Shown one piece after another: positions 37,795-55,171 of a DNA stretch of 64,000 bases; the stretch's first letter is position 1, and every line of letters begins with the position of its first letter. Source of the stretch: an uncultured SAR86 cluster bacterium. GTDB lineage: Bacteria > Pseudomonadota > Gammaproteobacteria > Magnimaribacterales > AG-339-G14. A model generated the notes under the pieces. The model searched no databases and had not been told where the DNA came from. It was given only the letters and a program-made list of their open reading frames with translations. The translations under genes and the position numbers were made by a program. Location of the stretch: the NCBI GenBank assembly GCA_902529935.1, contig CABZYK010000003.1, forward strand, positions 64,787 to 128,786. Reading direction: 5' to 3'.

Positions 37795-38556
37795 TTGAGA
37801 CAACTTAATTTTGAATCACTTCTCTACTCAAATCTGCTCGATGAAGATACGGCTATTACCATAAAAAAAGCCGATCAATTAGCAAACATAGATATCAAGC
37901 ATTTAGAAATCGCACAAATTAAAGAATGTTATGAAAACGATATCATCCTTGAAGAAGAAAAATGGTTGGATCGAGTTAAGCCCTTCATTTCTGAGCAAAG
38001 TCCGAGATATATCGAAAATATGTTTAATACGAGAATAAACAGTTGGTATAAAAAACACATCAATTTGCTGACCTTTATGGACGAAGCTCCCCAAAGTCAA
38101 TTATGGTCTGCGTTCAGTGAAATAGTCGTTGCTGGCCATCTCATTCAAGATTTAATCGATGACCAACTAAAAGAGCTCAGTTACTTTAAATACCTTGGCG
38201 ATCAACTAGCTAAAGATGGTTTTGATCTCAAGTCTCAGAAAACCAAAAACTACCTAGAGTTTGAATTCAACTCCACAACTGATCACTTGCGCTCCATCAA
38301 AGATTTTTTTTCTTACTTAGAAAAAGATTACACCAAAATATCATTCGAAGAATTTATGGAGCGATTTAACGGTTTAGAGAAATTACTCCGAAGATGGCAG
38401 GCTGTAGGGATTGTGTCTGCACAAAAAGCTCTTGAACTTGTTAATCAAGAACCTTATCCAAAAATAGATTTTTTTGATTTAGATCAATCTTTTATCGATG
38501 AAGTTAAAGAGCCCAAAAAATGGTACGTTGATGTCAATCAAAGCGTTCTTGTCTGA
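37795..38556 (+). CDS. Hypothetical 253-aa protein (listed start is TTG; probably the 3' part of a frameshifted or slippage-dependent gene)
   Basis: There is no ATG or SD near 37795. The frame is open upstream to 37726. See the related finding. Confidence 0.5.
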   Translation: MRQLNFESLLYSNLLDEDTAITIKKADQLANIDIKHLEIAQIKECYENDIILEEEKWLDRVKPFISEQSPRYIENMFNTRINSWYKKHINLLTFMDEAPQSQLWSAFSEIVVAGHLIQDLIDDQLKELSYFKYLGDQLAKDGFDLKSQKTKNYLEFEFNSTTDHLRSIKDFFSYLEKDYTKISFEEFMERFNGLEKLLRRWQAVGIVSAQKALELVNQEPYPKIDFFDLDQSFIDEVKEPKKWYVDVNQSVLV

Positions 38557-39536: not shown

Positions 39537-40346
39537 ATGGCGAGGCATAGAGGAGTATACGATCCAAATAATCCTGAACCTTATGAATTGAGTCGTTCAC
39601 GTATAGAAGCTTTCATTAATTGTCCTGCTTGCTTTTGGATGGATAGGGTTAAAGGCATAAAGTTTCCAGGAATGCCTGGTTTCTTGCTCAATACTGCTAC
39701 CGATACCCTCTTAAAAAAGGATTTTGATAAATATAGAGCCTTAAAAAAACCGCATCCACTGATGGAATCATACGGTTTGGGGCATCTAGTTCCTTTTGCT
39801 CACGAAGATTTTGAAACTTGGACAAAATCACTTCAATTGGGCTTGAGAACATATTTCAAAGAAGAGAATCTATTGATTGGGGGAGGTTTAGACGATGTCT
39901 GGCATGATAGATTCAAAGACGAAATATTTATTGTTGATTATAAGAGTACTGCAGGACGAAGAAATGCAGATAAAACCGCATTGGAACCAATCAGTTTAAA
40001 CGGTGCCTATAAAGAAAGTTATAAAAGACAGATGGATGTTTATCAATGGATCATGCGAAAAAACGGTTTCAAAGTAAGTAATAAAGGCTATTTTCTTTAT
40101 GTCAACGGAGATCAACATTTTGAAGACGGCATGTTAGATGATGATCCTATGAAAGCGACCATGAAATTTGACGTCCAGTTACTAGAATACAACGGAGATG
40201 ATTCTTGGGTAGAAGATACTATAAAAGAAATATCGAAGTGTTTAAAAAGCTCAGAATGTCCTGATCACTCTATGAACGGCTTTGGTCCGAAGGGCGATCA
40301 GCCCTGTGAGTACCTGATCTTTTTAGACGGAGTCAAGAAAATCTAA
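39537..40346 (+). CDS. PD-(D/E)XK nuclease, Cas4 / RecB-family type with a probable 4-Cys Fe-S cluster
   Basis: GGAG lies upstream of the ATG. N-terminal CPACFW, GGLDDVW (Asp), IVDYKS (D/E-x-K), QMDVYQW (Q..Y), and C-terminal C..CPDH...C. Confidence 0.75.
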   Translation: MARHRGVYDPNNPEPYELSRSRIEAFINCPACFWMDRVKGIKFPGMPGFLLNTATDTLLKKDFDKYRALKKPHPLMESYGLGHLVPFAHEDFETWTKSLQLGLRTYFKEENLLIGGGLDDVWHDRFKDEIFIVDYKSTAGRRNADKTALEPISLNGAYKESYKRQMDVYQWIMRKNGFKVSNKGYFLYVNGDQHFEDGMLDDDPMKATMKFDVQLLEYNGDDSWVEDTIKEISKCLKSSECPDHSMNGFGPKGDQPCEYLIFLDGVKKI

Positions 40347-40476: not shown

Positions 40477-43400
40477 ATGAGTTGGTTTTTAGAAAGAGAT
40501 AGAGCCGATTTTCTTGAAAAGGAAGTTAAATCGTCTATAGATAGAAAAAAACAGGAAGTGAATAGGAATATCACTTATAAAGATCATGTAAATATCCTCA
40601 CTGAATTTATGGATCAAGGGTATATTCACGAAAATTTTTTAATAAATGTAATATGGTTTTTTCATAGATGTAGATTAGATCAATCGTATTCAAACATTTT
40701 AGAATCATTCATTGAGAATTTTCAAAAGGCAGTTGAGTTACAAAAGGCAATTGAAACTGAAGCGCCTTCTTCAGGTAGTGGAGATTTTTTAGCATACACC
40801 AATACGCTTATTAACATCTTTACTTTAGAATTCCAGCAAAATCGATTGGACACTCCCTCTATAGCTTCCTGCCTCTCGGCTGAAGAAAAAGATAGGATAA
40901 ATAAAAAAATTACAGATTTTGAAGAAATATCTTTTCTGAACGAAAAAGCAGGATACTTAGATAAGACTAAGCAGATGAAAATTTTAGAAAAATTCTCGAA
41001 AAGTTCACATTTTGAGAAAGTATCGTATCAACTTGACTTTTTAATGGACATTGCGACCGGCTCAGGAGATGAATCAACTATTGCTGAAGCTCCTCTAAAC
41101 TACTTACTAGAAGAAAATGATGTAATTTCAGATGATTATGGAATATTTGGTTTAGTTGATGATGTTTATGCGATATCAGAGAGTTATTACAAATTAAGAA
41201 ATAGGAATGATCTAGGTCGACTCGTACAAAGCTTTAATCATGAACATGAAAATTTTTATATTCCCAATCTTCAGGATGAGAATAAACCTATATCTTTAGT
41301 TAATGTTGAAGATATAGTAAAAGCCGCGCTGGCAAAGGAAAATGAAGATTATTTTAAGCGGCTCCTTGTTCTCTCAGACATCGGACCTCTACCTATCTTC
41401 ATTGCTTTGGGAAAAGCAATAATTGAGAGACAAAAGCACTCTCACTTTGGTCAAGATGACGTGAAATTTGATTCTGGTGAAAATTTGGTCTTCTTTAATG
41501 AAAAGAATGATACAAGAATCGTAGCAACTTATGCGGGTAAGCGTGGCCAGGATTTTGATCAAAATTTATTATCAGATAACAAAGATGATGAGGTTTTAAA
41601 CGATATGTATGCATTATGGGTTGATAAGGAAAAAAGCTCCATACAGTATGTAACAGAAGCCTTCATAAAAACTGCAAAGCCTACTTCTAGACGTATTTCA
41701 ACAAAAAAAAATATATATAAATTCTTTAATTCTCTTGAGGAAAAACCTCTCAATCATTGGGCAAGGTATAACTTTCCTGAAGGCATTACATCAATTAGAC
41801 ATGAGAAAAAATTATTTATCCTTGGCCAAAAAAATAAAATTTTAGATTTCCTTGATTTAAATTTATTCAACAAATCAATCAAATCATGGTTAGGGCTAAG
41901 AGAATTTACTAAAGATGGGAAATGTATAAATCATGAACAACAAGCAAATCAATTATTTCCTGACCCCTATATATATCTTTTTGCTGACTCTGGAGCATTT
42001 ACCGATGCTCTTGAAAATCAATGGCATGAAACTTGCAGTGAAACTGAAAGATCAGAACCAGAATTAATAATTACATGTGAAGACAATTATTTAAGAGACG
42101 AATATCTTTTAGATACTTTAAAAAGATGTGAGGCTGATGTATTGGTTCTATCATCATTTATTAATAACTATGAAATAAATAAGACAGCTGCTAATGGTTT
42201 TGATCAGATACCAGTTAAGCCAAATGATTACCTATCAGACTTGAATATTAGTGGAATTGATCCTGTAAGTAGGTTTTTTAGTAGATCAAAAGATTTTAAA
42301 ATCTCTATTGAGAATACAAAAAATAATTTTATTGAAAACTTTTATTCTATTAGAAATCTTCTAAAAGATTTATTGTTGGAAGAGAGGCACAAATTTATCA
42401 AGCGTTGTCTTTATAGGATTATTGAAAATCTACAAAATAGAATACTGCCACTAAATGAAGAAGAAAAAGTAAATTTCCAAGAGAATTTTGAAATTCTATT
42501 AAATGAACTTCACGAAATAAGTGCTAATAATTCAAAAGTCAAAAGAGCAATAAATCTTTTGGCTGACTTAAAGCAAGATGCAGAAGATTTTCATAAATTT
42601 GAAGAAATTAAAGATTTTTGCATTAAAAACAATGAACTTAAGACAGTAATCCTTTGTCACAAAAGACAAAAAGAAAGGCTAAATTTTTTAATTTCTGAGG
42701 AAGGATTAAATGCCACGGCTGAGACCTTTACGAATCTTGAGAAGATAGAAATTGTAGGAAAAATCTTAGTTGCAATAGCTCAAAAAAGGGAAATTTCACA
42801 AAAACTAAAGATGTATCGTTATGCTCAGGAGATTTGTTTTCTTTTAAATGATGAAGAGCGAAAGAGTCACCTTAATACGCTCAAAAGGCTTGAAAAATAT
42901 TTTAATAATTATTTTCCTTCATCTGAGGTTAAAGAAGAAATAATAGAGGAAGTTGAGGATTTCAGTTCAAGTTTCACTGAAGAATCAATCGACTTTACCT
43001 ATACCGCTGCTAAATCAAAGTTCTCAGGAGAAGCTGATTCAAGTGTGGAAGCAAAAATGCTGCTTTTGGATGACGAACAGATTTATTTTTCCAGAAATAG
43101 AAGAGATGTCCTTTTCATATCCAGAAGAAGGGGGGATTCGATAGAATATGGCAAAACTGAAGATTTACTATCGGGAGATAAAATTGTGATCTCGGAAGAA
43201 TTCAGTGGCAATGAAATTTTACATCTTTTAATGAATAAAGAAGAAAAATTGAAATATCCTGAATTAGAAGGGCAAGCTCAAATTTGGCAGGATAAGTTAA
43301 AAGAGTATAAAAATGAAAATCATATGGACATATATCAATTAACTGCAGCTTTAAAGGACAATGGAGTTGATAGACATTTCGCTACGGTAAGAAATTGGCT

Positions 43401-43716
43401 AAGTGACCCAGAAACAATTTCGCCTAGGTCTTTTTTTGATCTTCAACAAATTTTTAAACTAGTTGGGGAAAAAGATTCTAAAGTTTTTTATGATTGTAAA
43501 AATAAAGGAAAAGAAGTTTATAGACTGAGAAATGAATGTAAAAAAAGGCTTTTAGAAAAGCTTCAAGATGTTCGGTTTGATGTTGATCAAGATGAAATCT
43601 CATTGATTATTAATGAAAAGCAGATTTCCTTTGGTGTTTATGAGATTAATGCTACTAAAGATATAGTTGTGGAATCATCTCATTTACACAAAATACAAAA
43701 TCTAGATCAGTTCTAA
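40477..43716 (+). CDS. Orphan 1080-aa protein (a DrmE-like role is possible by context only)
   Basis: The ATG at 40477 is preferred over the TTG at 40459. No NTPase or nuclease motif recognised. The segment YLLEENDVISDDYGIFGLVDDVYAI resembles the DUF1232 motif. The stop overlaps the next start (TAATG). Confidence 0.7.
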   Translation: MSWFLERDRADFLEKEVKSSIDRKKQEVNRNITYKDHVNILTEFMDQGYIHENFLINVIWFFHRCRLDQSYSNILESFIENFQKAVELQKAIETEAPSSGSGDFLAYTNTLINIFTLEFQQNRLDTPSIASCLSAEEKDRINKKITDFEEISFLNEKAGYLDKTKQMKILEKFSKSSHFEKVSYQLDFLMDIATGSGDESTIAEAPLNYLLEENDVISDDYGIFGLVDDVYAISESYYKLRNRNDLGRLVQSFNHEHENFYIPNLQDENKPISLVNVEDIVKAALAKENEDYFKRLLVLSDIGPLPIFIALGKAIIERQKHSHFGQDDVKFDSGENLVFFNEKNDTRIVATYAGKRGQDFDQNLLSDNKDDEVLNDMYALWVDKEKSSIQYVTEAFIKTAKPTSRRISTKKNIYKFFNSLEEKPLNHWARYNFPEGITSIRHEKKLFILGQKNKILDFLDLNLFNKSIKSWLGLREFTKDGKCINHEQQANQLFPDPYIYLFADSGAFTDALENQWHETCSETERSEPELIITCEDNYLRDEYLLDTLKRCEADVLVLSSFINNYEINKTAANGFDQIPVKPNDYLSDLNISGIDPVSRFFSRSKDFKISIENTKNNFIENFYSIRNLLKDLLLEERHKFIKRCLYRIIENLQNRILPLNEEEKVNFQENFEILLNELHEISANNSKVKRAINLLADLKQDAEDFHKFEEIKDFCIKNNELKTVILCHKRQKERLNFLISEEGLNATAETFTNLEKIEIVGKILVAIAQKREISQKLKMYRYAQEICFLLNDEERKSHLNTLKRLEKYFNNYFPSSEVKEEIIEEVEDFSSSFTEESIDFTYTAAKSKFSGEADSSVEAKMLLLDDEQIYFSRNRRDVLFISRRRGDSIEYGKTEDLLSGDKIVISEEFSGNEILHLLMNKEEKLKYPELEGQAQIWQDKLKEYKNENHMDIYQLTAALKDNGVDRHFATVRNWLSDPETISPRSFFDLQQIFKLVGEKDSKVFYDCKNKGKEVYRLRNECKKRLLEKLQDVRFDVDQDEISLIINEKQISFGVYEINATKDIVVESSHLHKIQNLDQF

Positions 43717-45440
43717 TGTTAACGCTCATTCCTCAATATCAACCTAAAAAAGATAACAAAGGAAAAATGATTCCTAAAGCAGAAGTGAGCTTTTTTGAAA
43801 CAATAAAAAAACAAAAGGATCAATTAAATGAGTGGATGGTTTTTTGGAATATTCATATTGATGAGCATCTTTCAAAGCAAGATGGTCAAGTTGATTTTAT
43901 TTTTCTTGGGAAAAAAGGGCTGTTCGTTGTCGAGGCTAAAGGTGGAGATAGTTACGTTGTAAAAGGAAATAAACATTATTATTTTTACAAATCCCAAGGA
44001 ATGAATTCTGATTATGCGCAAAATGAATCCGCCTTAACTCAGGCAGAAGGAAATATGCGTTCTATCGAGAATTATATAAGAAACAAAATACCCACAACTA
44101 AGGTCAATATTAAGAAACGAGTTATTGGATTTGGAGCTGTTCTTCCATTTATCGATACCACTAATATTGATTCAGGAATTCAATTTAACAGTGGACAAAT
44201 TTATGGGTCTCAATCAACAAGCATCTCAGATTTTCTTGATTTTTTAATAAAGCATAGCAAGGCAAAACTGCAAGGAGAAAGAGAGCAATTTTCGGACTCT
44301 GAGTTAAACGTAATTAGAAACCATCTTCAAATTGAAATGAAATGCGTCAGTAAATTTTATCTTTCTCAATCTGAACATAATGAAATTATGATGCTAGAAA
44401 GCAATCAACAAACTCTGGCAAGCTATTTTTTATCTAAATCTCACTCAAGATTTTTAATTGAAGGCGGGGCAGGAACTGGAAAAACAGTTTTAGCAAAGTA
44501 TTTTGCACACAGCTTAATTAATGATAACAAAAAAGTTTTATGGATTTCCTTCAATAAGTTGTTTACTGAGCATATAAAAGAATATTTTGGCGATATTGGC
44601 AAAATTGAAATTATTTCAGCTACAAAATTTAAAATGAACATAATTAAACAAAATACTGGACAAATAGTCACGACCGGTGTTGAAGACAATGATTTTGATA
44701 AAAAATTTCTTGAAGCTGCAAGTATGGATAAAGACTCTTTAGATTATGACTTCATTATTATGGATGAAGCACAAGATATCCTCAGTGGTGATTTTTTTTG
44801 GGGGATGGACGAATTAATAAAGGGAGGATTTGATGAATCATCATGGGCAATTTTCTTAGACTCTGAATCGCAAGCACATGTATTCAACCGCCTAGATCGC
44901 GATGCTTTGCAGCATTGCAAGCAAAAATCTGATTTTGAAGAATCACTTATTGAGAACTATAGAAATCCTAGAAAAATTGTAAAAAATTTATATGAATATT
45001 TGGGAAAAGAACCACCTGAAGCTAAAAGAGAATTTGAAGGAGAGATTATAGAAAAAAAAGTACAAGAATCTTTGGAAAAAACCCTTTTGAATATAGTAAA
45101 AAAAGAGGACAAACCAGTTGTTCTATCTACAGTAGCGGAAATTAAATTTTTTGGAGATAAGTTTGATAATAAGAAATTTTTTGAGTTAAGCAATGAAAAA
45201 TATTTTCTACAATCTCTCGGAAATGAAAAAATAAGCCAAACAGTTTTAAGAAATTACGATACAAGAAAAGCTAAACCCATAGAAGCAACAAACATTCATA
45301 CCTTTAAGGGACTAGAAAGTGAAGTGATTATTCTCGTGATTGATAAAGAAGAACTCGAAGAGAAAAGAGAAGAGTTCTCTTATCGATACTATACTGGATT
45401 ATCCAGAACATTGGGAAAAGCATATTTAGTATTAACTTAA
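43716..45440 (+). CDS. NERD-domain nuclease-like + SF1 (UvrD-like) helicase fusion
   Basis: N-terminal NERD pattern (QVDFIFLGKKGLFVVEAKGG), Walker A GGAGTGKT, Walker B IIMDEAQD, NYRNP, and C-terminal IHTFKGLESEVIILV. Confidence 0.8.
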   Translation: MLTLIPQYQPKKDNKGKMIPKAEVSFFETIKKQKDQLNEWMVFWNIHIDEHLSKQDGQVDFIFLGKKGLFVVEAKGGDSYVVKGNKHYYFYKSQGMNSDYAQNESALTQAEGNMRSIENYIRNKIPTTKVNIKKRVIGFGAVLPFIDTTNIDSGIQFNSGQIYGSQSTSISDFLDFLIKHSKAKLQGEREQFSDSELNVIRNHLQIEMKCVSKFYLSQSEHNEIMMLESNQQTLASYFLSKSHSRFLIEGGAGTGKTVLAKYFAHSLINDNKKVLWISFNKLFTEHIKEYFGDIGKIEIISATKFKMNIIKQNTGQIVTTGVEDNDFDKKFLEAASMDKDSLDYDFIIMDEAQDILSGDFFWGMDELIKGGFDESSWAIFLDSESQAHVFNRLDRDALQHCKQKSDFEESLIENYRNPRKIVKNLYEYLGKEPPEAKREFEGEIIEKKVQESLEKTLLNIVKKEDKPVVLSTVAEIKFFGDKFDNKKFFELSNEKYFLQSLGNEKISQTVLRNYDTRKAKPIEATNIHTFKGLESEVIILVIDKEELEEKREEFSYRYYTGLSRTLGKAYLVLT

Positions 45441-45456
45441 GCTTAATATTAAATGC

Positions 45457-47400
45457 CTAGATGTTGAGAAAATACCCTTTTGCATTTTCTGAATCTTCTG
45501 TAAGCAAATTTCTATCTAATAGGATATTTTTTGGAAACGAACAGCACGCTAAATCTGGGACCATAAGACAAGCGTGGCAACCCGCCAAATTCATGCCATT
45601 TAAAGCCTGACCTTTTGAATCGCTACAAATTGGGTCATTGGAACAAAACCTAGAATTTTCGATAGCATTATGTAAAAGATTTTCAAATAATTCTGGTTTA
45701 ATCATTCTAACCAACCCCCCTAATGATCCAGACGAGTCTGCAGATGCCGTGTAAATTAATAATCCTGCCATTTTTTTTTCCTTACTGTAATAAATTCTTT
45801 CTAGCAATTCTGTGATTCCGTAACCACATTCTGCTGCTAGTTGATTCATCAAAGAATGAGAAAATGAATGGATCATCACATAACCCGGATCAAATGATTC
45901 TGATCTGCTTAACTTTTCAAATAAAAAAGTATTTTTTGCGTTACTTTTTATTAAATTAGCTCTTTCAAGAAAATATGGATTTTCATCGAGCCAAGAGGAA
46001 ATTTTTTCATATCCAAAGTCTATAAAAATTCCTTCTCCTGTAACCTCGATACAAGGAAGAAAATCTACTAATTCTCTTGCAGCATTGAATTTTTCCTCTG
46101 GGGAGACACTACTAAGCGATTCTGCTTGACGTTCAAATCCCAACAAAGCAGTTGCCGTTTTGACTTTCTTTACCTGATGAAGGCTTGAGAAAAAATTAGA
46201 AATATTCTCATTCTTATAACTGTCTAAAGATATTTTAGATGCAATAAAATCATCGTCATCAACCTTATCTTGAATAAGAGTTTGATACTCTTTATAAAGA
46301 AAATCCTTATCAAGTTCCTCAGAATTAAGACGTTCGATTGGTTGCTCATATATCTTGCTGAAATGAGTAGTTATGATTTGGGTAGCTTGATCAAGATCTA
46401 AACTATATTGTTCATGTATCCCAGTATTATCCAGAGTATCCCTTAACGAATCCATTACATCAGGATTATCTAAAGCCTTATTTATAAACCTTGTTATTAA
46501 GTCATCATCCAGAAGGGGAGATCGTATACTCTCTGGATCTGGAACAAAAATTGCACTTTTATGAATTGGCAGATAAATTTTCGAAGCTCCTCTTGGTTGA
46601 ACATCAACAATCTCATCACATTTTTCACTGTCGCCTAGCCAAGGTCTTTTCCCATCACATGAAAATATTTTTCTGCCGTCTCTATCAAGAATTTCCTTTC
46701 TATTGTCAATTTTATTAATGCCAGTTAAAGGTTTTGACTTTCCACATTCAGCGCAAGTTATTCTTAAGCTAGAAAAACCTGCTCCAGTTCCATTATCATC
46801 TAAATAAAGAGATGGGCTATTGTGACTATGATTTTTTGTGAGCATTTTACATCCATCATCGCAACTTGTTGACATCAGCCTGTCCCAGTTAATATCTTGG
46901 ATGTGACCTTTCTGACAAAAAGATATGAATCTAACAGGCTCAGTTTTAGATCCCCATCGTGAATCGTTACAAGGTGAACCTTTTTTCCATTTAGGCAGTC
47001 TTGGGTTAGAACAACGTCTAGAGGTTGCAATTGGACTATGTTTCATCAAAGCATTACAGCTCATACAAATCGACCACTCAGGAAATATCGATACTGGTAT
47101 TTTTCCAGCTATAGGATGAAAAGAAGGCTGATATTGATCGTATTCAACTGGCGGTTCAACAAGTTTTCGTATATTAATATAGTGCCGAGGAGAGTTTTCA
47201 AAATTTTTAAGAACTATATTTAGGTAGTCAACGAACCTTTGATTGTTAATTTTTAAGTTATTTATCTTATCGGGAGTGAGATCCCATTTATCAACAGACA
47301 TTGTCATTCCAGGAAAGTCAACGTAGTCATAGGTCGCACCAACACCAAAGGTAGTAACTATTTGACTTCTTCTTAAATCATTATTGCTATTGAATGGCAT
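45457..47400 (-). CDS. drmB: DUF1998-domain protein, DISARM DrmB-like
   Basis: C-terminal Zn-type Cys cluster FCSNDPICS...GCHACLMVPDLACCSFPKNILLDRNLL is typical of DUF1998. A 14-nt overlap with the upstream helicase gene. Confidence 0.8.
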   Translation of the reverse strand: MPFNSNNDLRRSQIVTTFGVGATYDYVDFPGMTMSVDKWDLTPDKINNLKINNQRFVDYLNIVLKNFENSPRHYINIRKLVEPPVEYDQYQPSFHPIAGKIPVSIFPEWSICMSCNALMKHSPIATSRRCSNPRLPKWKKGSPCNDSRWGSKTEPVRFISFCQKGHIQDINWDRLMSTSCDDGCKMLTKNHSHNSPSLYLDDNGTGAGFSSLRITCAECGKSKPLTGINKIDNRKEILDRDGRKIFSCDGKRPWLGDSEKCDEIVDVQPRGASKIYLPIHKSAIFVPDPESIRSPLLDDDLITRFINKALDNPDVMDSLRDTLDNTGIHEQYSLDLDQATQIITTHFSKIYEQPIERLNSEELDKDFLYKEYQTLIQDKVDDDDFIASKISLDSYKNENISNFFSSLHQVKKVKTATALLGFERQAESLSSVSPEEKFNAARELVDFLPCIEVTGEGIFIDFGYEKISSWLDENPYFLERANLIKSNAKNTFLFEKLSRSESFDPGYVMIHSFSHSLMNQLAAECGYGITELLERIYYSKEKKMAGLLIYTASADSSGSLGGLVRMIKPELFENLLHNAIENSRFCSNDPICSDSKGQALNGMNLAGCHACLMVPDLACCSFPKNILLDRNLLTEDSENAKGYFLNI

Positions 47401-50400
47401 CTTGAGTTTGTTCGTTTTTAACTATTTCTACTTGTAAATCAGAATTTCGCATACTTGTTGGAGCAGAAAAAACAGCACCCTCACCAACAGGAAATCCAGG
47501 GTCAAAAAGTCTCGTGTCAGATGGTCTTCCTCCCATTTTACCCCATTCATCAATATTGCCAGATTTTTTCCAACGATCCTTAATTCTCTTTAATTCATTT
47601 TTTACCATATCAAGCTCTTCCGGATCTGATTTTTTTACTGAATCTAGAATCCAATCTTCAGCTAATTTAAATCTTTCCTTGTCTTCTTTTTCACTATAAG
47701 TGGGATTATTTATATCTTTCCCAAAACTTAAAACAAGTGAAGCAAAAATTGCAGGCAAACCTCGTTTTCTGGCTCCCGAAGAGAAGGGTGTAACACTCAC
47801 AGTCTCAACATATCTATAGATAGACTGATGATAATTTTTAAACATTTCATAAATAGATCTATCTTTGGATTTTGCATGATTAAAAATAGTTACAACTAAA
47901 CCGGGATTTCTTCGCCCTACTCGTGAAGAAGCTTGAATGTATTCCGCAGTAGTTTTAGGCTGACCATGAACTAACATAAGGCCTAGTCTTGGGATATCTA
48001 CCCCCACTGAAATCATATTTGTTGCTAATAAAATATCTATTCCTTTAACTGTATCTTCGGCGCTTCTAAAAGTTTGAGTCCAAGGAATATTGATTTCTTC
48101 TAAGATGCTTTCTATTTCATCTTGACTTCTTCTGCCGGTCAATTCTCTTATCTTTTTAATTTGTCTCGAGAACCTTGTGAGCTTATCATCAACAGATCCA
48201 AATTTCCCTCTGTTAAAATTTTTTGCATTTCTTCTTAAGGAAGCATTGAGATTTTGTTTCTGATTGCTCATGTAGGCTAGCTCTCTTTTACTGTTGAAAT
48301 ACCATACGGCAGTTCCAAAGGGATCAAAAGACATCTCTTTTGAAGTTGGCAAAGGATATATAGTGTCTCCTTCCGCTAAGTTATGATTAAATTTTTCTTT
48401 TAAACCTAATTTAAATCCTAGTTCATCAGCTTTTTCTATATAGCTTATATCGTATTTAGCGACTTCCTTTCCATCGTAAAAAGTAAAGCTACTATCTTCT
48501 TTCAACGATGATAGTGGAGAGACGTAAAGATGATCAACTCCTTTCTTGACTTTTGATTTAGTCATTGGAAGTATGTCATTTGGGCTCTGAAGTAATGGAA
48601 TTGCTGCTGAAACGGAAGACTCAATCATAGAACCTTTCGAAGAGCCAAAATAACCCATATAAATCCTACCTGGTACATCCTTGGTATCTCTCTCAGTAGC
48701 AAAAAAAGAATCTTCCCAATCAATTACTTGCGGGGGGAAAATATTGGATCTCCTACCGCGGTAAAGAGATTTAGCCTGATCACCCGAAAAAGTAAGAGTA
48801 GCTGAAGCACCAACTATTTTCGGTATCTGATTTTCAGTTGACATTAGTTTCATGACAACATTTTCAAATAAACCAACCATAGTTCCTAGAGGTCCAGAAA
48901 TTAAATGAAGTTCATCCTGAATTATCATCTCTGGAGGATCGTATTGGTCATTTTTAATTAACTCTATGGCCTCTTTTCGCCAACATAATTTAGCAAAGTT
49001 ATCTACAGTCCCCAGAAGCAAAGTTGGCTTTTCTTGAAAAATTGATTCTTCCCATAAGAACACGGGCAATTCTTCATAGAAAATACATTTTTTATCAGAA
49101 CACTTTATTATTGCCTTCCCCTGTCTGCGAACATAGCCTCTGTCATCTGGATGAGAAATTTTTGATTTACACCAAGGGCATTGATGAAGAACGAACTTAT
49201 AATTTCCTTGATCATCTTTACCAGATCGATCTTGACCATTTAATATTCTAATTGCATTTGCATGAGTATTTGGATTACCTTTTGAGCCTATCCAAAGTCC
49301 CAAAGATATCATTTTATCTCCTAGATTTAGATTTAGAATTCCATGTCTTCTGATAAATTCCAGAGCACAAATTAAAGCTGAAGATCTCCTAAATTGATCA
49401 GAAGTAAGTAATCTCAAGGTATATCTCATTAATGAAGTTACCCCAGCATTATTTGGATTTCTGAGTCTTCTTAATAAAATGTTGAAAGCAATCAAACCTA
49501 AATAAGCCTCAGTTTTTCCACCGCCAGTTGGAAACCAAATCAGATCTACTTGTTCTCTTAATTCAGAATATTCTTCTGGCTCTACTATTTCGGGCAATAT
49601 AGTAAGGATGAATGCTATTTGAAATGGTCGCCAACTTCCCTTTAGCCCTGTATGCTTTAAGTTCTTGAGTGATTCAATAAATTCAAGCTCTAATTCAAAA
49701 TTTTGATCCTGGTCTTTTTTAATAATTAGTTCTTCATCCTTATCTTTTTTTTCTAACTTATTTAAACGATTCATCTGAAGCAGCATTGCATGATTCATAA
49801 GTCTGAAGCATTTATCAGCCTCATCGTTTTTCTTAATCATATTTAATCCAACTTTCATTCTGCTTAAACATTCCCGAGCATTTGACAGATTTTTCTCAGC
49901 TATTTGCACGAAAGCATCATCCAAAGTATTTTTTTTGTTTTCTTGATCGTCTAGCCAATTTGAATAATTCTGAATAAGATCTTCTAAAGGTTGATATCTA
50001 CCGCTAGTATCTTCATCATTGAGATCGGCAAATTTACTCATGCTTAAATTATCTGAATCTAGTGCTTGTATGCTTTTTGTTTCAAAGGTTGGCACAAAAG
50101 AAGACGAAATAATTTTACAATCATTAGAATTATGATTTTCCTCCCAATCTGAGGCGCAACCCTTTCCAATTGCATAAGACCTCTTGTTTCTGAAAAGTAA
50201 ATCTAGAGTCTCTGCATTCTCTCCATATCCTGATTGGAATGGATTTTTTATAGGTAAAAAACCTGAATCTAGATTTTCTATTTTCATACCTACTTGATAA
50301 TAAATATCCTCTTCATTTTTGCTTTTATTAAACATGGAGATGGAACAAATAATTTTGTCTCTTTTTCTAAATACTTTTACCGAAATAGATAGGCTTTCAT

Positions 50401-50899
50401 TAATCTCGAGAAGCTGAGATCCCAACGCAATATCAACTTCGATTTCATCAATCGTCTTATTTCTTTTCCAAGTATCATTTTCTTTTTTATATTTTGAAAA
50501 GCCGTATAAAATTTTTAATCTATCATCTGTTGCTAGCAAGAAATTCAATCCGAACGCAGAAGGATTATTTTGGGTGGACAGATCGATTATATTTGAAGAC
50601 TCAGAATTGTCTTCATCGTCATCAGCCTCAGGTTGATAGCCTAAACCGGTGTCATTTTCTATTTCTTCTTCTTCAACTTCAATTTCAATGGATTCATTTT
50701 CATGATCAGATGATGAAGAAATGTCAGTTATTTGAGGGTATAAAATTCCTGATATAAATTGATATTTGGGATTAACAGTAATTTCTTCCTCAAGTTCATC
50801 TTCCCAATTACCTCCATAAATTGTTTTTTTAAAGTCACCTATGACTGCTTTTCTAGCTTGAAGAAATTCTTCAAGATTGGGATTAGGTAAGTTTTTCAT
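47387..50899 (-). CDS. drmA: Large SF2 helicase, DISARM DrmA-like
   Basis: FPTGGGKTEAY (motif I), IIQDELHLISGPLG (motif II), ATNMISVGVDIPRL and YIQASSRVGRR (motifs V/VI), behind a ~430-aa N-terminal region with an acidic tract. Confidence 0.8.
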   Translation of the reverse strand: MKNLPNPNLEEFLQARKAVIGDFKKTIYGGNWEDELEEEITVNPKYQFISGILYPQITDISSSSDHENESIEIEVEEEEIENDTGLGYQPEADDDEDNSESSNIIDLSTQNNPSAFGLNFLLATDDRLKILYGFSKYKKENDTWKRNKTIDEIEVDIALGSQLLEINESLSISVKVFRKRDKIICSISMFNKSKNEEDIYYQVGMKIENLDSGFLPIKNPFQSGYGENAETLDLLFRNKRSYAIGKGCASDWEENHNSNDCKIISSSFVPTFETKSIQALDSDNLSMSKFADLNDEDTSGRYQPLEDLIQNYSNWLDDQENKKNTLDDAFVQIAEKNLSNARECLSRMKVGLNMIKKNDEADKCFRLMNHAMLLQMNRLNKLEKKDKDEELIIKKDQDQNFELELEFIESLKNLKHTGLKGSWRPFQIAFILTILPEIVEPEEYSELREQVDLIWFPTGGGKTEAYLGLIAFNILLRRLRNPNNAGVTSLMRYTLRLLTSDQFRRSSALICALEFIRRHGILNLNLGDKMISLGLWIGSKGNPNTHANAIRILNGQDRSGKDDQGNYKFVLHQCPWCKSKISHPDDRGYVRRQGKAIIKCSDKKCIFYEELPVFLWEESIFQEKPTLLLGTVDNFAKLCWRKEAIELIKNDQYDPPEMIIQDELHLISGPLGTMVGLFENVVMKLMSTENQIPKIVGASATLTFSGDQAKSLYRGRRSNIFPPQVIDWEDSFFATERDTKDVPGRIYMGYFGSSKGSMIESSVSAAIPLLQSPNDILPMTKSKVKKGVDHLYVSPLSSLKEDSSFTFYDGKEVAKYDISYIEKADELGFKLGLKEKFNHNLAEGDTIYPLPTSKEMSFDPFGTAVWYFNSKRELAYMSNQKQNLNASLRRNAKNFNRGKFGSVDDKLTRFSRQIKKIRELTGRRSQDEIESILEEINIPWTQTFRSAEDTVKGIDILLATNMISVGVDIPRLGLMLVHGQPKTTAEYIQASSRVGRRNPGLVVTIFNHAKSKDRSIYEMFKNYHQSIYRYVETVSVTPFSSGARKRGLPAIFASLVLSFGKDINNPTYSEKEDKERFKLAEDWILDSVKKSDPEELDMVKNELKRIKDRWKKSGNIDEWGKMGGRPSDTRLFDPGFPVGEGAVFSAPTSMRNSDLQVEIVKNEQTQDAIQ

Positions 50900-50911: not shown

Positions 50912-52204
50912 TTAAAATCTTTTATGGGTGAGCAATATATTTTTGAAGTGCTTTCCAATCTCATAAGCAAGCTTTACTGGAACAGCATTTCCTATCTGAG
51001 TATATTTAGGAACCTCTCTTTCAAAATTTAACTCCTTAGGATTTCCTGCTCTTCTGATACCACCTGTGGTTCTTTTTCCGCAGAACTTATACCAATCTGG
51101 AAAAGTTTGTAATCTTGCCCATTCTCTTACAGTTAGAGACCTAGGTTGAGCATAATGCACAAAATCATCAGGCAATGAGGTTGCAGTAATAGTCGGTCCT
51201 TTATTACCCCATCTTTTTGGTAAAAGTCTTTGGGCAAATTTTTTAGTTTTGAGGTTCTCTGGAATTTGACCATTGTTTTTTAGCATGTAAGCGAATTTTT
51301 CTTCAACCTTTTGAGAGTGATTGCTATATTTATGATCAGTTAAAGTATCTCCTTTCATGGAAATTTTATTTGACCGAAAACCTTTTCTTATATTTCTTTG
51401 CCATTTATTTTTCGGATTACTCGGATAGACATTAGTTTGACCACCATTAATAAACTTTCTATCAATTATGTCAGAAAAAACTTCATCCAGATTTGGATAA
51501 TCGTATTTAGGTGCGGGAAGAAAACCATTTAGTAAAGCGTCATGATCATTAACTAAATTCACAGGAATTTTTTTATTAATTCCAATTATCAGAACCCTAG
51601 GTCTATTTTGTGGAACCCCATAGTCTTTTGAAAAAATTAGCTTAAATTTAACGTTATAGTTTGTAATTTTTTTAAAGGCATTTAAAACTTCATAAAAAAC
51701 TTCACCTTTTCTTCCTTCAGGATTCCATTTTGATCTAAGTAGGCCTTGAACGTTTTCGAATAAAAAAATCTTTGGTTCAACTCTTCTTATGAAAAACGCC
51801 ATATCTTGGAACAAGTGATTGGATGGAAGCTGATCTCTCTTAACAGGATAAGATCTTCTGATGCCTAATCGAGAAAATCCCTGACAAGGAGGCCCACCAA
51901 CCACTAAATCAACAGTATCTTTTGAGAAGTCTCTTTGAAAGGAAAGTTCCAATTCATTGAATAAATTCTTAAAAAAATTTCTTTTATAAATCTCATCCCT
52001 TAAATCATGAGAATGAAATTTCTCTCTTAAGTGGGGATAATTTTTATCTCTATTAGAAAGATATGTTTCAAGAGCATCTACATTCAATTCGTTGACGTAT
52101 AAAGGAAAAAAACCAGCTTGTTCAAGGCCTAAAGATAAACCACCACATCCCGCAAACAAATCAATGAATGTTAGTTTATTCTTCTCTATTTTGAGTTTCT
52201 TCAA
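50912..52204 (-). CDS. drmMII: DNA (cytosine-5) methyltransferase (DrmMII-like position)
   Basis: Motif I FIDLFAGCGG, motif IV GGPPCQGFS, motif VI FENVQGL, motif VIII QNRPRV, motif X GNAVPV. Confidence 0.9.
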   Translation of the reverse strand: MKKLKIEKNKLTFIDLFAGCGGLSLGLEQAGFFPLYVNELNVDALETYLSNRDKNYPHLREKFHSHDLRDEIYKRNFFKNLFNELELSFQRDFSKDTVDLVVGGPPCQGFSRLGIRRSYPVKRDQLPSNHLFQDMAFFIRRVEPKIFLFENVQGLLRSKWNPEGRKGEVFYEVLNAFKKITNYNVKFKLIFSKDYGVPQNRPRVLIIGINKKIPVNLVNDHDALLNGFLPAPKYDYPNLDEVFSDIIDRKFINGGQTNVYPSNPKNKWQRNIRKGFRSNKISMKGDTLTDHKYSNHSQKVEEKFAYMLKNNGQIPENLKTKKFAQRLLPKRWGNKGPTITATSLPDDFVHYAQPRSLTVREWARLQTFPDWYKFCGKRTTGGIRRAGNPKELNFEREVPKYTQIGNAVPVKLAYEIGKHFKNILLTHKRF

Positions 52205-53078
52205 GTTGCTCTGCTCCCTTATTCAACTCTCTTCCCAAGACATTAATTCTAGTTTGCATATTTGAAACTTCTTTTACAGAAGCGTCTAATTTCGTCAACA
52301 CCTTTTCGGTACTGGCATCAAACTGTTTGAATTGATCTTTAATTTTTCTGACAACTTCTGCCACCAAGCCGGCCGTTTCATTCAGCCTTAAATAGTGATG
52401 CCCCATCCTTACTGTATCTAAAAATGCTGCCAAAGTATTTGGACCTTGTATTAATATTCGTTTTTGAGAGAGGCAGTCTTGTCTAAGGTTTTCAATTTGA
52501 CCTATTAAATCATTAAGTTTTTCGGAGGCTAAATAAAGGATTCCATAATCTGTGGTGGTATTTTGCAAAATGTATTTATTAGCAATATCATCTGCGTCGT
52601 TTAGGATCGCTGTTTTAAGTTGTCTTAATACCCTAGATTTCTCTGTTTGAGTTTTTGCTTCGTGATAATTGCCATAAAGTCCAGCATAAAACTTCGAATC
52701 AATCGGAATTAGCAGGCCATCAGCAGTCGAGACTGCACAATCTACTTGATCTTGAGTCCTAGGGTTAATGATATGTTGAAAGTTAAAGCTACCCTCAGGC
52801 ATGATCTCGCTGACAATAGATTCGAGACTCCACTCACCTAATCTGCCGGTAGAAACGTTGCCTCCTAAAAATCTATTTAATTCATTTATTGGGGCTGTAA
52901 CAGACTGCAATTGATTTTCAATTTCATTGATGTCTTTAGTGACTACGTCCAATTTATTTTCAAGATATTCTGAAGATGAAGTTTCTTTTATATCTTTGTC
53001 TCTAATTTTTATAACAAGGAACCCTAAAAGACCTAAAGTAATTGAAGATAAAAGAATGGCAACTACATTTAAGATCAT
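52176..53078 (-). CDS. rmuC: RmuC-family protein (short, 300 aa; N-terminal TM + coiled coil + RmuC nuclease-like domain)
   Basis: AILNDADDIANKYI, YGILYLASE and KRILIQGPNTLAAFL match RmuC-domain blocks, from memory. It overlaps the methyltransferase start by 29 nt. Confidence 0.7.
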   Translation of the reverse strand: MILNVVAILLSSITLGLLGFLVIKIRDKDIKETSSSEYLENKLDVVTKDINEIENQLQSVTAPINELNRFLGGNVSTGRLGEWSLESIVSEIMPEGSFNFQHIINPRTQDQVDCAVSTADGLLIPIDSKFYAGLYGNYHEAKTQTEKSRVLRQLKTAILNDADDIANKYILQNTTTDYGILYLASEKLNDLIGQIENLRQDCLSQKRILIQGPNTLAAFLDTVRMGHHYLRLNETAGLVAEVVRKIKDQFKQFDASTEKVLTKLDASVKEVSNMQTRINVLGRELNKGAEQLEETQNREE

Positions 53079-54077
53079 TTAATAAATATCCTTTAATTTC
53101 AATGCTAATTCTTTAAATTTTGCTCTCAAGGCTTTAGGTGCGAGCACTTCTACATCGGCACCAAAACTCATAAGCCATTGTTCAAATTGTAAAGTATCTG
53201 GAACTCTTGCTGTAACTAATAATCTTCCATCTGATAATTCTTTTTCAGTCTGAGTACCATTGAGTTTTGTTTCCGTTAAGTGCGCCGCCATGGTTTTATT
53301 AAATATTGCTTTAAAAGTATAAAGTTTATCGCTGTTTGTAAATCCGAGGTTATTGGTATGAATAAAATCATCCAAACTAAAATTCTCAGGTTGCTTTATT
53401 TTTTGATCTGTTAATAACTCAACCTCTTTAAACCTATGAATTGGTAGATATCTCGGCGTTATAGGATCTTCATCCATCATGCATATAAGATAAGTCATGC
53501 TCCCTTTCACAACGATTGCCATTGGATGCATATGCCTTAAATCAGCTTCTTTTTCTCCTCTCTTTCGATACAAAGCTTTCAGTTGAATACCTTCGAATAC
53601 TGCTTGATATATTTTTTGTCTGATTTCTGATTTTACTGGCGCTTCCTTAAAGCGGATTGTCTCAGGAATCACACGGACCCTTTTCCGCCATCTCAAAACA
53701 TTTGATTTTTCATTACCGGTAAGAACTTTTTCAGCTCTTTTAAAAAATTTTTCTACTCTTTTAAAGCTTGCTTTAGGCATAAGAGGCTCTAAATATTGGG
53801 CCGCCAGTGAAAAGGTAAGAGCTTGTATTGGGTCCATAGCAGGAAATTCATATCCTGGTGAATCTTTCTTCCAACTCCACCCAAAAGGGGTGCTTCTGTC
53901 ATCGCATTCAATGGGAAAAATTCTGGAAAGTTCATTTAAATCCCTTTGCACAGTTCTAAGGCTTGTTTCATAACCAAAGTTATCGAGACCTTGTTTTATT
54001 TCTGTTGCAGTAACTTTGACCGGGTATCTTTTTATTAACTCAGTCATTTTGATCATTCTTAAGACGCTATCGCTCAT
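53079..54077 (-). CDS. wHTH-WYL-WCX transcriptional regulator (BrxR / CapW / YafY type)
   Basis: N-terminal wHTH (TSLRTVQRDLNELS). WYL-like core (LKALYRKRGE...HPMAIVVKGSMTYLICMM...RYLPIHRF). C-terminal WLMSFGADVEVLAPKALR. Its stop abuts the rmuC start. Confidence 0.85.
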   Translation of the reverse strand: MSDSVLRMIKMTELIKRYPVKVTATEIKQGLDNFGYETSLRTVQRDLNELSRIFPIECDDRSTPFGWSWKKDSPGYEFPAMDPIQALTFSLAAQYLEPLMPKASFKRVEKFFKRAEKVLTGNEKSNVLRWRKRVRVIPETIRFKEAPVKSEIRQKIYQAVFEGIQLKALYRKRGEKEADLRHMHPMAIVVKGSMTYLICMMDEDPITPRYLPIHRFKEVELLTDQKIKQPENFSLDDFIHTNNLGFTNSDKLYTFKAIFNKTMAAHLTETKLNGTQTEKELSDGRLLVTARVPDTLQFEQWLMSFGADVEVLAPKALRAKFKELALKLKDIY

Positions 54078-54193: not shown

Positions 54194-55171
54194 TCATTTT
54201 CTCAGCCTCTGATACCCGCTCAAATGAATAATGCTACTTTGTTTGGATATAGCTCCTAAGGAAATATCTAGCTGAGGATAATTTAAAACAACCTCGCTGC
54301 CCTCATAAGGCCCTGGTAATACCTTTTCTTTCAGACTTTTGATTAAGGTAACAAATTTATCTTTGATCTCACTTTTACTAAAAGGCGTTCGATATATTAA
54401 ATAAGGATCTTTTGAATTTTCAAGTTCTATAGCATCGATTAGAATGCTTCTTGTTAGTTTTTTTGAATATTTAGAATATAAAGCAGGTGAATTAAAGAAT
54501 TCAATTCCTAGACAAGTATTTTTTAAATAAAAAATGAACCCAACCTGATCTTTTAATTCTTTAACTTTTAAAGATAGCTGTTTAAGTGAAGAGTTTGCAT
54601 TTCTGTAAGTATCATTTATGGAGGATGTAAGGGATCTTACGTTCATATTTCTTTGCTTTTCTTGAATATCTTTCCATACTTCAGACTGATTTGAATGTTT
54701 TCTGCCCGTATTTATTTTCGATTCATTTACATAAAACATCTTGTTTCCTTTTGCTCTAAAATTATGTAAATCGTCTGAATAGTTAAATTTGCCGTAAGTC
54801 GATGACCATCTGTTCTGTTCAACACAACTTACGTCCATCATGAATTCACCATGGCCAGAAAGTAAAGTGGAATCATTGAGAGTTCTATTTTGCTTAGCTC
54901 CTTCAATTATTTCTCCATTGAGCAAAAGAACATCTTGACCAGATTTATTTTTAATTTTTACCTTACTAACGTCTCCTGTTTCCATAACTTCAAAATCATC
55001 AAGATTTATGGCTTCTTCAAGAGATAATAAATTGCTTGAGGAGAATTCATTTAGCTTTTTAGTAATAGGGAAGAGGGTAAGAGTTTCACTAATTTCTTCT
55101 CCTTGAAGTATTAAAAGTTGATTAATTTCTTTTTCTAATTCGCTTGATTGGGCATTTCTGATGTCTGTCAT
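54194..55171 (-). CDS. Hypothetical 325-aa protein (contains LLNGEIIEGAKQNRTLN...VSCVEQNRW block; possibly DUF6569/ARPP-1-like, from memory)
   Basis: Clean ORF with a 4-nt overlap with the upstream DUF4258-like gene. The family call is unverified. Confidence 0.55.
   Translation of the reverse strand: MTDIRNAQSSELEKEINQLLILQGEEISETLTLFPITKKLNEFSSSNLLSLEEAINLDDFEVMETGDVSKVKIKNKSGQDVLLLNGEIIEGAKQNRTLNDSTLLSGHGEFMMDVSCVEQNRWSSTYGKFNYSDDLHNFRAKGNKMFYVNESKINTGRKHSNQSEVWKDIQEKQRNMNVRSLTSSINDTYRNANSSLKQLSLKVKELKDQVGFIFYLKNTCLGIEFFNSPALYSKYSKKLTRSILIDAIELENSKDPYLIYRTPFSKSEIKDKFVTLIKSLKEKVLPGPYEGSEVVLNYPQLDISLGAISKQSSIIHLSGYQRLRK

Follow-up and report, generated by a model that had tools for sequence, protein, structure and literature searches.

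The product of drmE in the 64,000-nucleotide stretch of DNA analysed here (the window), a protein of 1079 residues, is best read as a scaffold subunit that belongs to the DrmE family and to a class-2-type variant of the anti-phage system DISARM. Membership in the family is supported strongly by sequence profiles, and the role as a scaffold is put forward with more modest confidence. The explanation that accounts best for the observations overall is a long-form DrmE scaffold in a NERD-coupled class-2-type DISARM, an explanation that we favour with some reserve.

Assignment to the DrmE family

The gene (40477..43716, + strand) runs uninterrupted from an ATG at 40477 to a TAA ending at 43716 and encodes 1079 aa, i.e. 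the very long, clean reading frame reported in the first-pass annotation is confirmed. An in-frame TTG at 40459, upstream of this ATG, is not used by the homologues, which start with MSW.... The designation as long-form drmE is based on the reading frame, on the NCBIfam model DrmE_fam, on 504 relatives and on an AF2 model with a pLDDT of 85.8. DrmE_fam (NF038316), a curated subfamily model with a whole-protein cut-off of 80 bits, matches the protein with 88.9 bits (E 2.6e-25), a margin of only 9 bits, and aligns residues 391-1000 with positions 107-755 of the 838 in the profile. Word-indexed homology searches, whether started from the single protein, from a 3-sequence or from a 101-sequence profile, returned only two relatives (P0001 and P0002), therefore an exhaustive profile search was needed, and this yielded 504 relatives at E<=1e-3. 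With these relatives and a DrmE_fam score above the cut-off, the protein can no longer be called an orphan. The description as low-complexity does not hold either: the Lys, Glu and Asn contents (8.9, 10.2 and 7.4%, respectively) match those of the genes next to it in this AT-rich region, and the AF2 model is well folded and multidomain. Over stretches of 30 aa the entropy averages 3.56 bits.

The position of the protein within the family can be narrowed down further. DrmE_fam was the best match for all nine relatives tested and the sole match for eight of them, and in a long-form relative, P0034, the entire profile aligns with residues 264-1103. The C-terminal family PF24957 (DrmE_C) is matched by 11 of 45 relatives and by P0001, which is 46% identical to the protein and fully alignable with it (39.4 bits, gathering score 27); the protein itself has no match to PF24957 at E<=10. 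The equivalog model NF038323 (DISARM_DrmE, cut-off 250 bits) gave no match to the protein at E<=1, and even a short-form relative, P0088, reached just 43 bits. Judged by these profile scores, the protein is a member of the DrmE family and not an equivalog of canonical DrmE. Taken together, a divergent, extended (long-form) family member is by far the most probable identity from the sequence. The earlier suggestion of a functional counterpart of DrmE or a sensor/scaffold is supported, but the first half of it was too cautious, as the protein is an actual sequence homologue, more than an analogue, and a long form with an extra N-terminal domain. No homology to a housekeeping family came up in the searches, and linkage to helicase and defence genes was found.

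Other resources pass over this protein. The DrmE HMMs of PADLOC-DB v2 do not match it at E<=10 and also miss the long forms P0028 and those of loci L015 and L022 as well as the short form P0117; they do match the short forms P0062 and P0088. A Pfam scan of the protein gave no match, and neither did tblastn searches of plasmids with this protein and with P0028. We found neither the long form of DrmE nor the coupling to NERD described in the searchable literature. That the PADLOC v2 DrmE models overlook the long-form protein represents a gap in present annotation.

Gene context and the NERD-SF1 helicase

The gene directly downstream (43716..45440, + strand) encodes a 574-aa protein with a NERD nuclease and an SF1 helicase. 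It matches NERD (40 bits) and SLFN-g3/AAA_19/UvrD_C_2 in Pfam, and RTasNERD-Hel (70 bits), Nhi, AbiO and NERD+UvrD in PADLOC. The sequence retains D...ExK, GGAGTGKT and MDEAQD, so that nuclease and motor both read as intact; the Asp of VDF falls at about D59, the Glu and Lys of EAK at about E72 and K74, and the Lys of GKT at about K256. The drmE stop overlaps the start of the helicase gene (TAATG), i.e. the two genes are translationally coupled, and since their adjacency is also conserved among the relatives, the coupling to the NERD helicase that had been proposed earlier is borne out.

The core DISARM genes follow on the opposite strand, with drmA and drmB lying within 2 kb. These are drmB (45457..47400, - strand), which encodes a 647-aa DUF1998/MZB protein (PADLOC DrmB, 251 bits; Pfam MZB), and drmA (47387..50899, - strand), which encodes a YprA-like SF2 helicase of 1170 aa (PADLOC DrmA, 619 bits) in whose alignment GGGKT and DELH are invariant. 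Next comes a 430-aa C5 cytosine DNA methylase (50912..52204, - strand; PF00145 DNA_methylase, 212 bits) in the role of drmMII; generic type II methylase models outscore the PADLOC DrmMII model (164 bits), and relatives, too, have a C5 methylase in their DISARM cassettes. The linkage to drmA and drmB is found in all related loci that extend past the NERD-helicase gene, except L037. The drmAB pair of the window is inverted with respect to all relatives, and there are no inverted repeats at the inversion junctions. As for the PLD nuclease DrmC, the 64-kb window contains no HKD signature and no phmmer match to two PLD queries, and Pfam scans of the neighbouring genes showed no PLD.

Gene context was compared in 25 distinct DrmE loci, which are not an unbiased sample. 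In 19 of these, at DrmE identities down to 14-17%, drmE is followed directly by a NERD-SF1 helicase gene. In two others (L030 and L041) DrmA has a NERD domain as an N-terminal fusion (28.2 and 32.8 bits, gathering score 22.1), and in a further two (L015 and L022) the helicase is absent after drmE and a different, though related, Nhi-like P-loop gene is found elsewhere; L039 has no NERD helicase. The partner gene resembles the Nhi and other NERD-helicase defence proteins in combining a NERD PD-(D/E)XK nuclease with a P-loop SF1 helicase. Unlike them, it has a fixed place in a multi-gene DISARM-type operon, and some relatives have a NERD-DrmA fusion instead of it.

Can the helicase be an independent, single-gene Nhi-like system that happens to lie inside a DISARM operon, with DrmE working only with DrmAB? 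The matches to the PADLOC Nhi, AbiO and NERD+UvrD models are consistent with this, as are L015 and L022 with their different Nhi-like gene and L039 with none, and DISARM operons commonly contain embedded genes, mostly co-oriented (bioRxiv 10.1101/2024.01.29.577857). However, the gene retains its place between drmE and drmA at 14-46% DrmE identity in unrelated samples, stop and start codons overlap, and DrmE, NERD helicase and DrmA diverge in parallel among the relatives. Moreover, two lineages have NERD fused directly to DrmA, and where NERD is present PLD is absent: DrmC is missing from every locus with a NERD module among the 25. We therefore consider an independent helicase improbable and prefer to see it as a partner of DrmE.

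A helicase-like core

The AF2 model of the protein (pTM 0.76) contains an alpha/beta core at residues 294-812 (41356..42912, + strand). In order, it consists of an extra alpha/beta domain, a RecA-like lobe (444-613), a helical insertion (618-717) and a second RecA-like lobe (723-812), the domain limits being taken from the AF2 secondary structure and not from coordinates. A Foldseek search of the model against the PDB gave 28 chains at E<=1e-3, every one of them an SF2 helicase (7zpk 4.9e-7, 1wp9 4.2e-6, 6p4f 1.1e-5, MDA5/RIG-I 1e-5 to 1e-4). The likeness to the Hef, XPB, RIG-I-MDA5 and Dicer modules (PDB 1wp9, 6p4f, 7bkp, 7zpk) consists of two RecA-like lobes with an inserted helical domain, as predicted for DrmE, and is found at Foldseek E values of 4.9e-7 to 1e-3 with probability 1.0. 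On the other hand, the identity to these modules is 9-12%, the global TM-scores are low (TMt <=0.42), conserved Walker A/B or arginine-finger residues are lacking, and DrmE has further N- and C-terminal domains. A sequence profile of full-length DrmE found nothing significant in the PDB.

The absence of a recognisable catalytic motif, remarked on in the first-pass annotation, was upheld: Walker A, Walker B, HxK and PLD signatures are not found by regular expressions, and there is no Pfam or PADLOC match. Likewise, motif I (GxGKT), motif II (DExH/D) and the motif VI arginines of SF2 gave no match in the protein. The 101 aligned relatives show no conserved Lys/Thr or DE pair and no conserved Walker residues; residues invariant across the 101 sequences occur only in the N-terminal motif and in the C-terminal unit described below. 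The body of DrmE is thus SF2-helicase-like by predicted fold and not an SF2 member by motif. As the ATPase motifs are missing, we infer that ATPase activity has been lost, and on the strength of the model DrmE is probably an inactive, helicase-like scaffold. A recent duplication of drmA was considered as its origin and rejected, because an hhalign comparison of the DrmE and DrmA profiles revealed no similarity. At first sight, a parallel can be drawn with DrmD, the SNF2-type helicase of class 1 DISARM, since both are large SF2-fold proteins encoded upstream of drmA and both are class-specific partners of DrmAB. But DrmD has the SNF2 ATPase motifs while DrmE lacks them, and no sequence similarity was seen between the two.

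The N-terminal domain

Residues 1-256 (40477..41244, + strand) form an all-helical domain in the AF2 model (pLDDT 91, pTM 0.89) that is missing from short DrmE proteins (~780-940 aa). Foldseek found no match for it in the PDB or BFVD (best E 1.9 and 0.93, respectively), and a sequence profile of the domain gave nothing significant against the PDB, the matches being designed helical repeats. The domain carries a DUF1232-type motif at residues 203-231 (41083..41169, + strand), A..PL.Y.....D...D..G..GL.DD.Y, identified from the alignment and PF06803; the segment that resembles DUF1232 reads NYLLEENDVISDDYGIFGLVDDVYAI. The resemblance noted earlier is weak in this protein alone (PF06803, 11.4 bits, E 0.27, below the gathering score of 23 bits), but it is real at the level of the family, where 26 of 45 long-form relatives reach PF06803 at E<=0.01 (best E 1.5e-12). 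Y209, D215, G225, D228 and D229 do not vary among 101 sequences, of which 99 have D219 and 100 have G222, and the motif is found in 99 of 100 long forms. By these sequence matches, Y..D...D..G..G..DD is a true DUF1232 motif at family level. YkvA/DUF1232 (PF06803) and DrmE have the motif D.(I/V)PD..G..G..DD in common; the difference is that here it sits in a protein of 1079 aa, within a soluble helical domain of 256 aa. There is no co-variation of the N-domain with the NERD helicase, because the short-form locus L036 has the helicase and the long-form locus L037, in which a PLD gene lies directly upstream of drmE, is without it. No upstream ORF encoding a separate N-domain was found in the short-form locus L039.

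The conserved motif raises the question of whether DrmE is an enzyme, i.e. whether D215, D219, D228 and D229 form a metal-dependent active site that makes the protein an effector rather than a scaffold. Four Asp, two Gly and the invariant Tyr of this motif are the best-conserved residues of the family, and the fold of the domain has no solved analogue. Polyprenyl and terpene synthases, which bind Mg2+ via helical Asp-rich motifs, recur among the non-significant Foldseek matches; as these matches have E>3 and probabilities <=0.03, they do not constitute evidence. In addition, short DrmE proteins without the N-domain occupy equivalent operons, and we know of no function or activity of DUF1232, so an enzymatic role appears quite improbable to us. 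Even less probable, to the point of being hardly credible, is a membrane-anchored sensor in which the motif is a YkvA-like membrane segment. DUF1232 is also found in small proteins annotated as membrane proteins, PF06803 matches are present in the family, and IMG names one relative 'uncharacterized membrane protein YkvA (DUF1232 family)'. Yet the protein has no transmembrane-like segment: the highest Kyte-Doolittle value for a span of 19 aa, 1.7, belongs to residues 298-316, modelled by AF2 as part of a strand-helix unit in the alpha/beta core, and the helix with the motif (219-241) is charged and amphipathic. A membrane protein was rejected for lack of such a segment.

The C-terminal region

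The DrmE_C region, matched by PF24957 in P0001 and other relatives as described above, covers residues 833-1079 (42973..43713, + strand) and comprises, in order, a small beta domain, an HTH-like three-helix unit, a long helix and a beta sheet. The three-helix unit (residues 952-996, 43330-43464, + strand) has AF2 helices at 952-961, 968-976 and 986-996. W937 and W974 are the same in all 101 sequences; conservation is at least 90% for G963, T970 and P983 and 85% for R966. Comparisons of the C-terminal unit with known HTH families and solved structures gave no significant match, the weak ones being DUF6471 (0.0095) and Myb_DNA-bind_4, FokI_D3 and GT-1 (E 0.9). The arrangement of helices in the model, together with the conserved Gly, Arg, Thr, Trp and Pro residues, is nevertheless suggestive of an HTH-like unit in DrmE_C.

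Relation to class 2 DISARM and a possible mechanism

It is useful to compare this cassette with class 2 DISARM. The PADLOC definition of type II DISARM comprises DrmA, DrmB, DrmC and DrmE as well as DrmMII (PMC9252829). DrmA, DrmB and a C5 methylase are present in the window, which falls outside this definition, where DrmE and DrmC are required, since the DrmE models miss the protein and DrmC is absent. According to bioRxiv 10.1101/2021.12.28.474362, which cites Ofir 2018, DrmE is essential and DrmC dispensable in class 2 DISARM; for DrmE this is reported for the Bacillus system only. The protein is similar to class 2 DrmE (NF038316, NF038323, PF24957) in its significant match over residues 391-1000, in the probably common C-terminal region, in the linkage to drmA, drmB and a C5 methylase, and in having no annotated catalytic domain. 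It differs by ~260 extra N-terminal residues with the DUF1232-type motif, and by its failure to match the equivalog model, PF24957 or the PADLOC DrmE HMMs. The locus differs in the NERD-SF1 helicase gene between drmE and drmAB, in the lack of DrmC and in the inverted drmAB.

We speculate that DrmE is a catalytically inert, DNA-binding scaffold that would join the DrmAB sensor/translocase, the recogniser of foreign DNA, to a nuclease module; this bridging role is a tentative idea, which we rate below an even chance. The nuclease module of the subtype would be the NERD domain, carried by an SF1 helicase of its own or, in some relatives, joined to DrmA in a fusion, in place of the PLD nuclease DrmC, and self DNA would be marked by the methylase. 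The N-domain motif would most likely be a metal- or ligand-binding or a partner-docking switch, and not the docking site of the NERD helicase. DNA is sensed by DrmAB. A yet more speculative, and on balance unlikely, generalization is that long DrmE and NERD define a distinct, widespread DISARM subtype in which NERD, whether it comes with an SF1 helicase of its own or as a DrmA fusion, replaces DrmC as the effector, DrmE is a dead SF2 helicase and the DUF1232-type N-domain is a metal- or ligand-controlled switch. If true, this would point to an effector of DISARM and place DUF1232 in a functional context for the first time. Three results feed these ideas, i.e. the motor-less helicase fold of DrmE, the DUF1232-type domain in a large branch of the family and the NERD partner; on their basis NERD is a candidate for the effector and DrmE for an adaptor, and D215, D228, D229 and W974 are candidate targets for mutation.

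Accessory genes

A 269-aa PD-(D/E)XK gene upstream (39537-40346) was considered as a constant part of the system and discarded, as it is found in only some loci (L002, L027, L028) and is not related to the gene of 237 aa that lies directly upstream of drmE in L001. An ARPP-1 gene is located at 54194-55171. A recurrent accessory is the 300-aa RmuC-domain protein with a hydrophobic N-terminal stretch (52176..53078, - strand; Pfam RmuC, 150 bits), which is linked to the cassettes of L001, L010, L015 and L022 in differing arrangements; published work mentions RmuC as an accessory of DISARM (PMC10270631, PMC10952713). The gene beside it (53079..54077, - strand) encodes a 332-aa WYL-WCX protein (Pfam WYL and WCX), likely a regulator, and also adjoins RmuC in L001, L010 and L015.

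Assignment to the DrmE family

The open reading frame was rightly described as long and clean in the first-pass annotation: it runs on the forward strand from an ATG at 40477 to a TAA ending at 43716 (1079 codons plus stop). An in-frame TTG at 40459 was rejected as the start, as the relatives begin with MSW(F/Y)L. In line with the search by eye for catalytic motifs, regular expressions find neither a Walker A or Walker B (hhhDE) motif nor HxK-D, and the protein has no match in Pfam or PADLOC. On the other hand, it is not of low complexity, as had been claimed. Its Lys/Glu/Asn content equals that of the neighbouring DrmA and NERD helicase and is explained by the low G+C of the region (30-32%), while the entropy averages 3.56 bits per 30-residue window, with just six windows below 3.0.

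By sequence, the protein is a divergent member of an already known family, DrmE, and so does not represent a categorically new kind. The NCBIfam model NF038316 (DrmE_fam) matches it with 88.9 bits (E 2.6e-25), above the curated cut-off of 80, profile positions 107-755 of 838 corresponding to residues 391-1000. There is no match to the equivalog model NF038323, to PF24957 or to any PADLOC DrmE model. P0001, the nearest relative, occurs in marine metagenomes and in a SAR86 MAG; it is 46% identical over the full length and matches Pfam PF24957 DrmE_C (39.4 bits, cut-off 27). With an exhaustive profile search, 504 proteins were retrieved (E<=1e-3). Among the representatives, about 100 are long forms of 990-1170 aa that can be aligned across the entire query, and about 16 are short forms (780-940 aa), aligning to the C-terminal two thirds only. 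DrmE_fam is the best NCBIfam match in 9 of 9 relatives tested and the sole match in 8. Since virtually the complete profile (4-838) falls on residues 264-1103 of the long-form relative P0034, the long form consists of an N-terminal extension of about 260 residues and a full DrmE body. The short forms are genuine and not mis-called starts; in the short-form locus L039 there is no ORF for the N-domain upstream of drmE.

Predicted structure

The AlphaFold2 model, built with a 45-sequence alignment, has a mean pLDDT of 85.8 and a pTM of 0.76. Domain limits, taken from its secondary structure and not from coordinates, delineate an all-helical N-domain (1-256), an alpha/beta domain (294-440), a RecA-like lobe (444-613), a helical insertion (618-717), a second RecA-like lobe (723-812), a disordered linker (813-832) and DrmE_C (833-1079), the last with a helix, a small beta domain, helices at 911-996, a long helix (1001-1031) and a beta sheet. 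The 28 PDB chains found by Foldseek at E<=1e-3 are SF2 helicases without exception, among them the Dicer helicase (7zpk, E 4.9e-7), Hef (1wp9, E 4.2e-6, TM 0.42 on target), XPB (6p4f, E 1.1e-5), and MDA5, RIG-I and DRH-1 (E 1e-5 to 1e-4); the low global TM-scores are expected because the query is multidomain. What these proteins share with DrmE is two RecA lobes and an inserted helical domain. In an alignment of 101 long forms, Y209, D215, G225, D228, D229, W937 and W974 are invariant, and D219, G222, G334, E794, G963, T970 and P983 are at least 90% conserved. Because the alignment has no conserved P-loop Lys/Thr, DE pair or motif VI arginine, the core resembles a helicase whose ATPase function has been lost.

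The resemblance of one segment to DUF1232, suggested earlier, is real at the family level, as 26 of 45 long forms match PF06803 at E<=0.01 (best 1.5e-12), but the window protein alone reaches only E 0.27. A DUF1232-type motif is present in 99 of 100 long forms. In six (P0034, P0076, P0078, P0085, P0093 and P0118) the motif occurs twice, near aa 80 and near aa 204, the extra copy preceding the other by about 125 residues. This points to an ancient duplication within the N-domain; the window protein retains the second copy only. Modelled separately (pLDDT 91, pTM 0.89), the N-domain places the motif in a helix-loop-helix (H199-211 and H219-241).

The N-domain model has no significant structural neighbour in the PDB or among viral models. 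That the N-domain is catalytic is an unlikely rival reading. A role of DrmE as a membrane sensor, which the small YkvA-type proteins annotated as membrane proteins might suggest, is less likely still. Unlike these, the DrmE N-domain is soluble, since no transmembrane segment was found in the window protein. It is also unlikely to be a docking site for the NERD helicase, because the two do not co-vary: the short-form locus L036 has the helicase and the long-form L037 lacks it.

In DrmE_C, helices 952-961, 968-976 and 986-996 bear G963, R966, T970, W974 and P983. In the model this unit resembles an HTH with T-V-R-N-W-L as putative recognition helix. Comparison with known families and the PDB gave nothing significant (best DUF6471, 0.0095; also Myb_DNA-bind_4, FokI_D3 and, in the PDB, GT-1 at E 0.9), and DNA binding is plausible but unproven.

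Gene neighbourhood and proposed role of the NERD helicase

The 3' end of drmE reads TAATG and overlaps the start of a 574-aa NERD-SF1 helicase (43716-45440, +), which matches NERD, SLFN-g3_helicase, AAA_19 and UvrD_C_2 in Pfam and RTasNERD-Hel, NERD+UvrD, Nhi and AbiO in PADLOC. Its sequence motifs D...ExK, GGAGTGKT and MDEAQD are intact. Converging on it from the minus strand are, in order of transcription, ARPP-1, WYL-WCX, RmuC, C5 methylase, DrmA (619 bits in PADLOC) and DrmB (251 bits). No PLD gene (DrmC) was found in the 64-kb window. Neither this protein nor other long forms are recognised by the DrmE HMMs of PADLOC-DB v2. As DrmC is absent as well, the locus lies outside the PADLOC type II DISARM definition, which needs both.

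We compared 25 distinct loci, the window included and near-identical contigs counted once; the sample is not unbiased, about half having been retrieved by similarity to the window protein. In 19, among them one short form and lineages whose DrmE is just 14-17% identical to that of the window, the NERD-SF1 helicase lies immediately 3' of drmE. In two (L030:3540-7313 and L041:3268-7011) there is no separate helicase and NERD is fused to the DrmA N-terminus (Pfam NERD 28.2 and 32.8 bits, GA 22.1). Two others (L015, L022) have adjacent drmE and drmA and a different Nhi/AbiO-like P-loop gene of about 715 aa elsewhere in the locus, and two have neither arrangement (L039 and L037, the latter carrying instead a PLD gene immediately 5' of drmE). 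DrmE, NERD helicase and DrmA identities drop in parallel over the loci (46/49/64, 27/33/47 and 24/30/42%).

An embedded Nhi-like gene acting independently of DrmE is a less likely rival explanation of this neighbourhood, and the PADLOC matches do include Nhi. The NERD-DrmA fusions and the conserved overlapping drmE-helicase pair support the alternative, that NERD belongs to the DISARM machine. Class 2 DISARM is reported, in a passage of 10.1101/2021.12.28.474362 citing Ofir 2018, to require DrmA, DrmB and DrmE, DrmC being dispensable; DrmAB loads onto single-stranded 5' overhangs and is damped by methylation (PMC9142583). From this literature and the anatomy of DrmE we infer that DrmE may act as an inert, DNA-binding adaptor of helicase fold linking DrmAB to a nuclease module, which in the window-type subtype would be NERD instead of PLD. 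The papers surveyed that mention DrmE, or that combine DISARM with NERD, report neither a DUF1232-type long form, nor a helicase-like, motif-less DrmE fold, nor loci in which a NERD module regularly takes the place of DrmC; the figures of Ofir et al. 2018 might show such loci.

Other features of the locus

The drmA-drmB pair (45457-50899, -) runs opposite to its orientation in all related loci that reach drmA, where drmE, (NERD helicase), drmA and drmB are on one strand. In the window it is co-directional with the WYL-RmuC-methylase genes instead. The gaps measure only 16 and 12 nt, and the junctions carry no inverted repeats. When L015 (MDTB01219066.1) is compared with window 50912-54077, RmuC is 97% and WYL 100% identical, against 63% for the methylase, 47% for DrmA, 42% for DrmB and 27% for DrmE; in L015, drmE and drmA are not separated by a NERD helicase, and there is an additional MvaI/BcnI endonuclease. 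The pattern suggests that a whole DISARM cassette was exchanged beside a constant WYL-RmuC anchor in one lineage. In the relatives, a type II endonuclease (MvaI/BcnI, Eco29kI) or Vsr often accompanies the C5 methylase (L015:11991-13166, L019:13709-14890, L033:20797-21666, L032, L034, L037 and L039), whereas the methylase of the window stands alone.

The RmuC protein (52176-53078, -) opens with a hydrophobic segment, MILNVVAILLSSITLGLLGFLVIKI, a possible membrane helix. The Shield paper describes RmuC-domain proteins (ShdA homologues) within DISARM-like operons, and RmuC has been noted as a DISARM accessory (PMC10270631, PMC10952713); the window RmuC could be either a separate Shield-like module or such an accessory. 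An ARPP-1 domain protein (54194-55171, -; PF20208, 216 bits) adjoins the system and may be a further recurrent neighbour, as another immediately precedes a distant long-form drmE (L040:901-1803). Just upstream of drmE lies a 269-aa PD-(D/E)XK / Cas4-like protein (39537-40346, +), homologues of which (61-77% identity) adjoin drmE in L002, L027 and L028; the 237-aa gene in the same position in L001 is unrelated. The stretch from about 33000 to 59000 has a G+C of 30-36%, compared to 42% at polA (59992-62664). It contains sizeable ORFs without Pfam match (33218-34501, 35726-37294, 37795-38556 and 55526-57067) as well as HD, NT5C and DUF6994 genes (57159-58967), and probably represents a defence island that holds more uncharacterised content.
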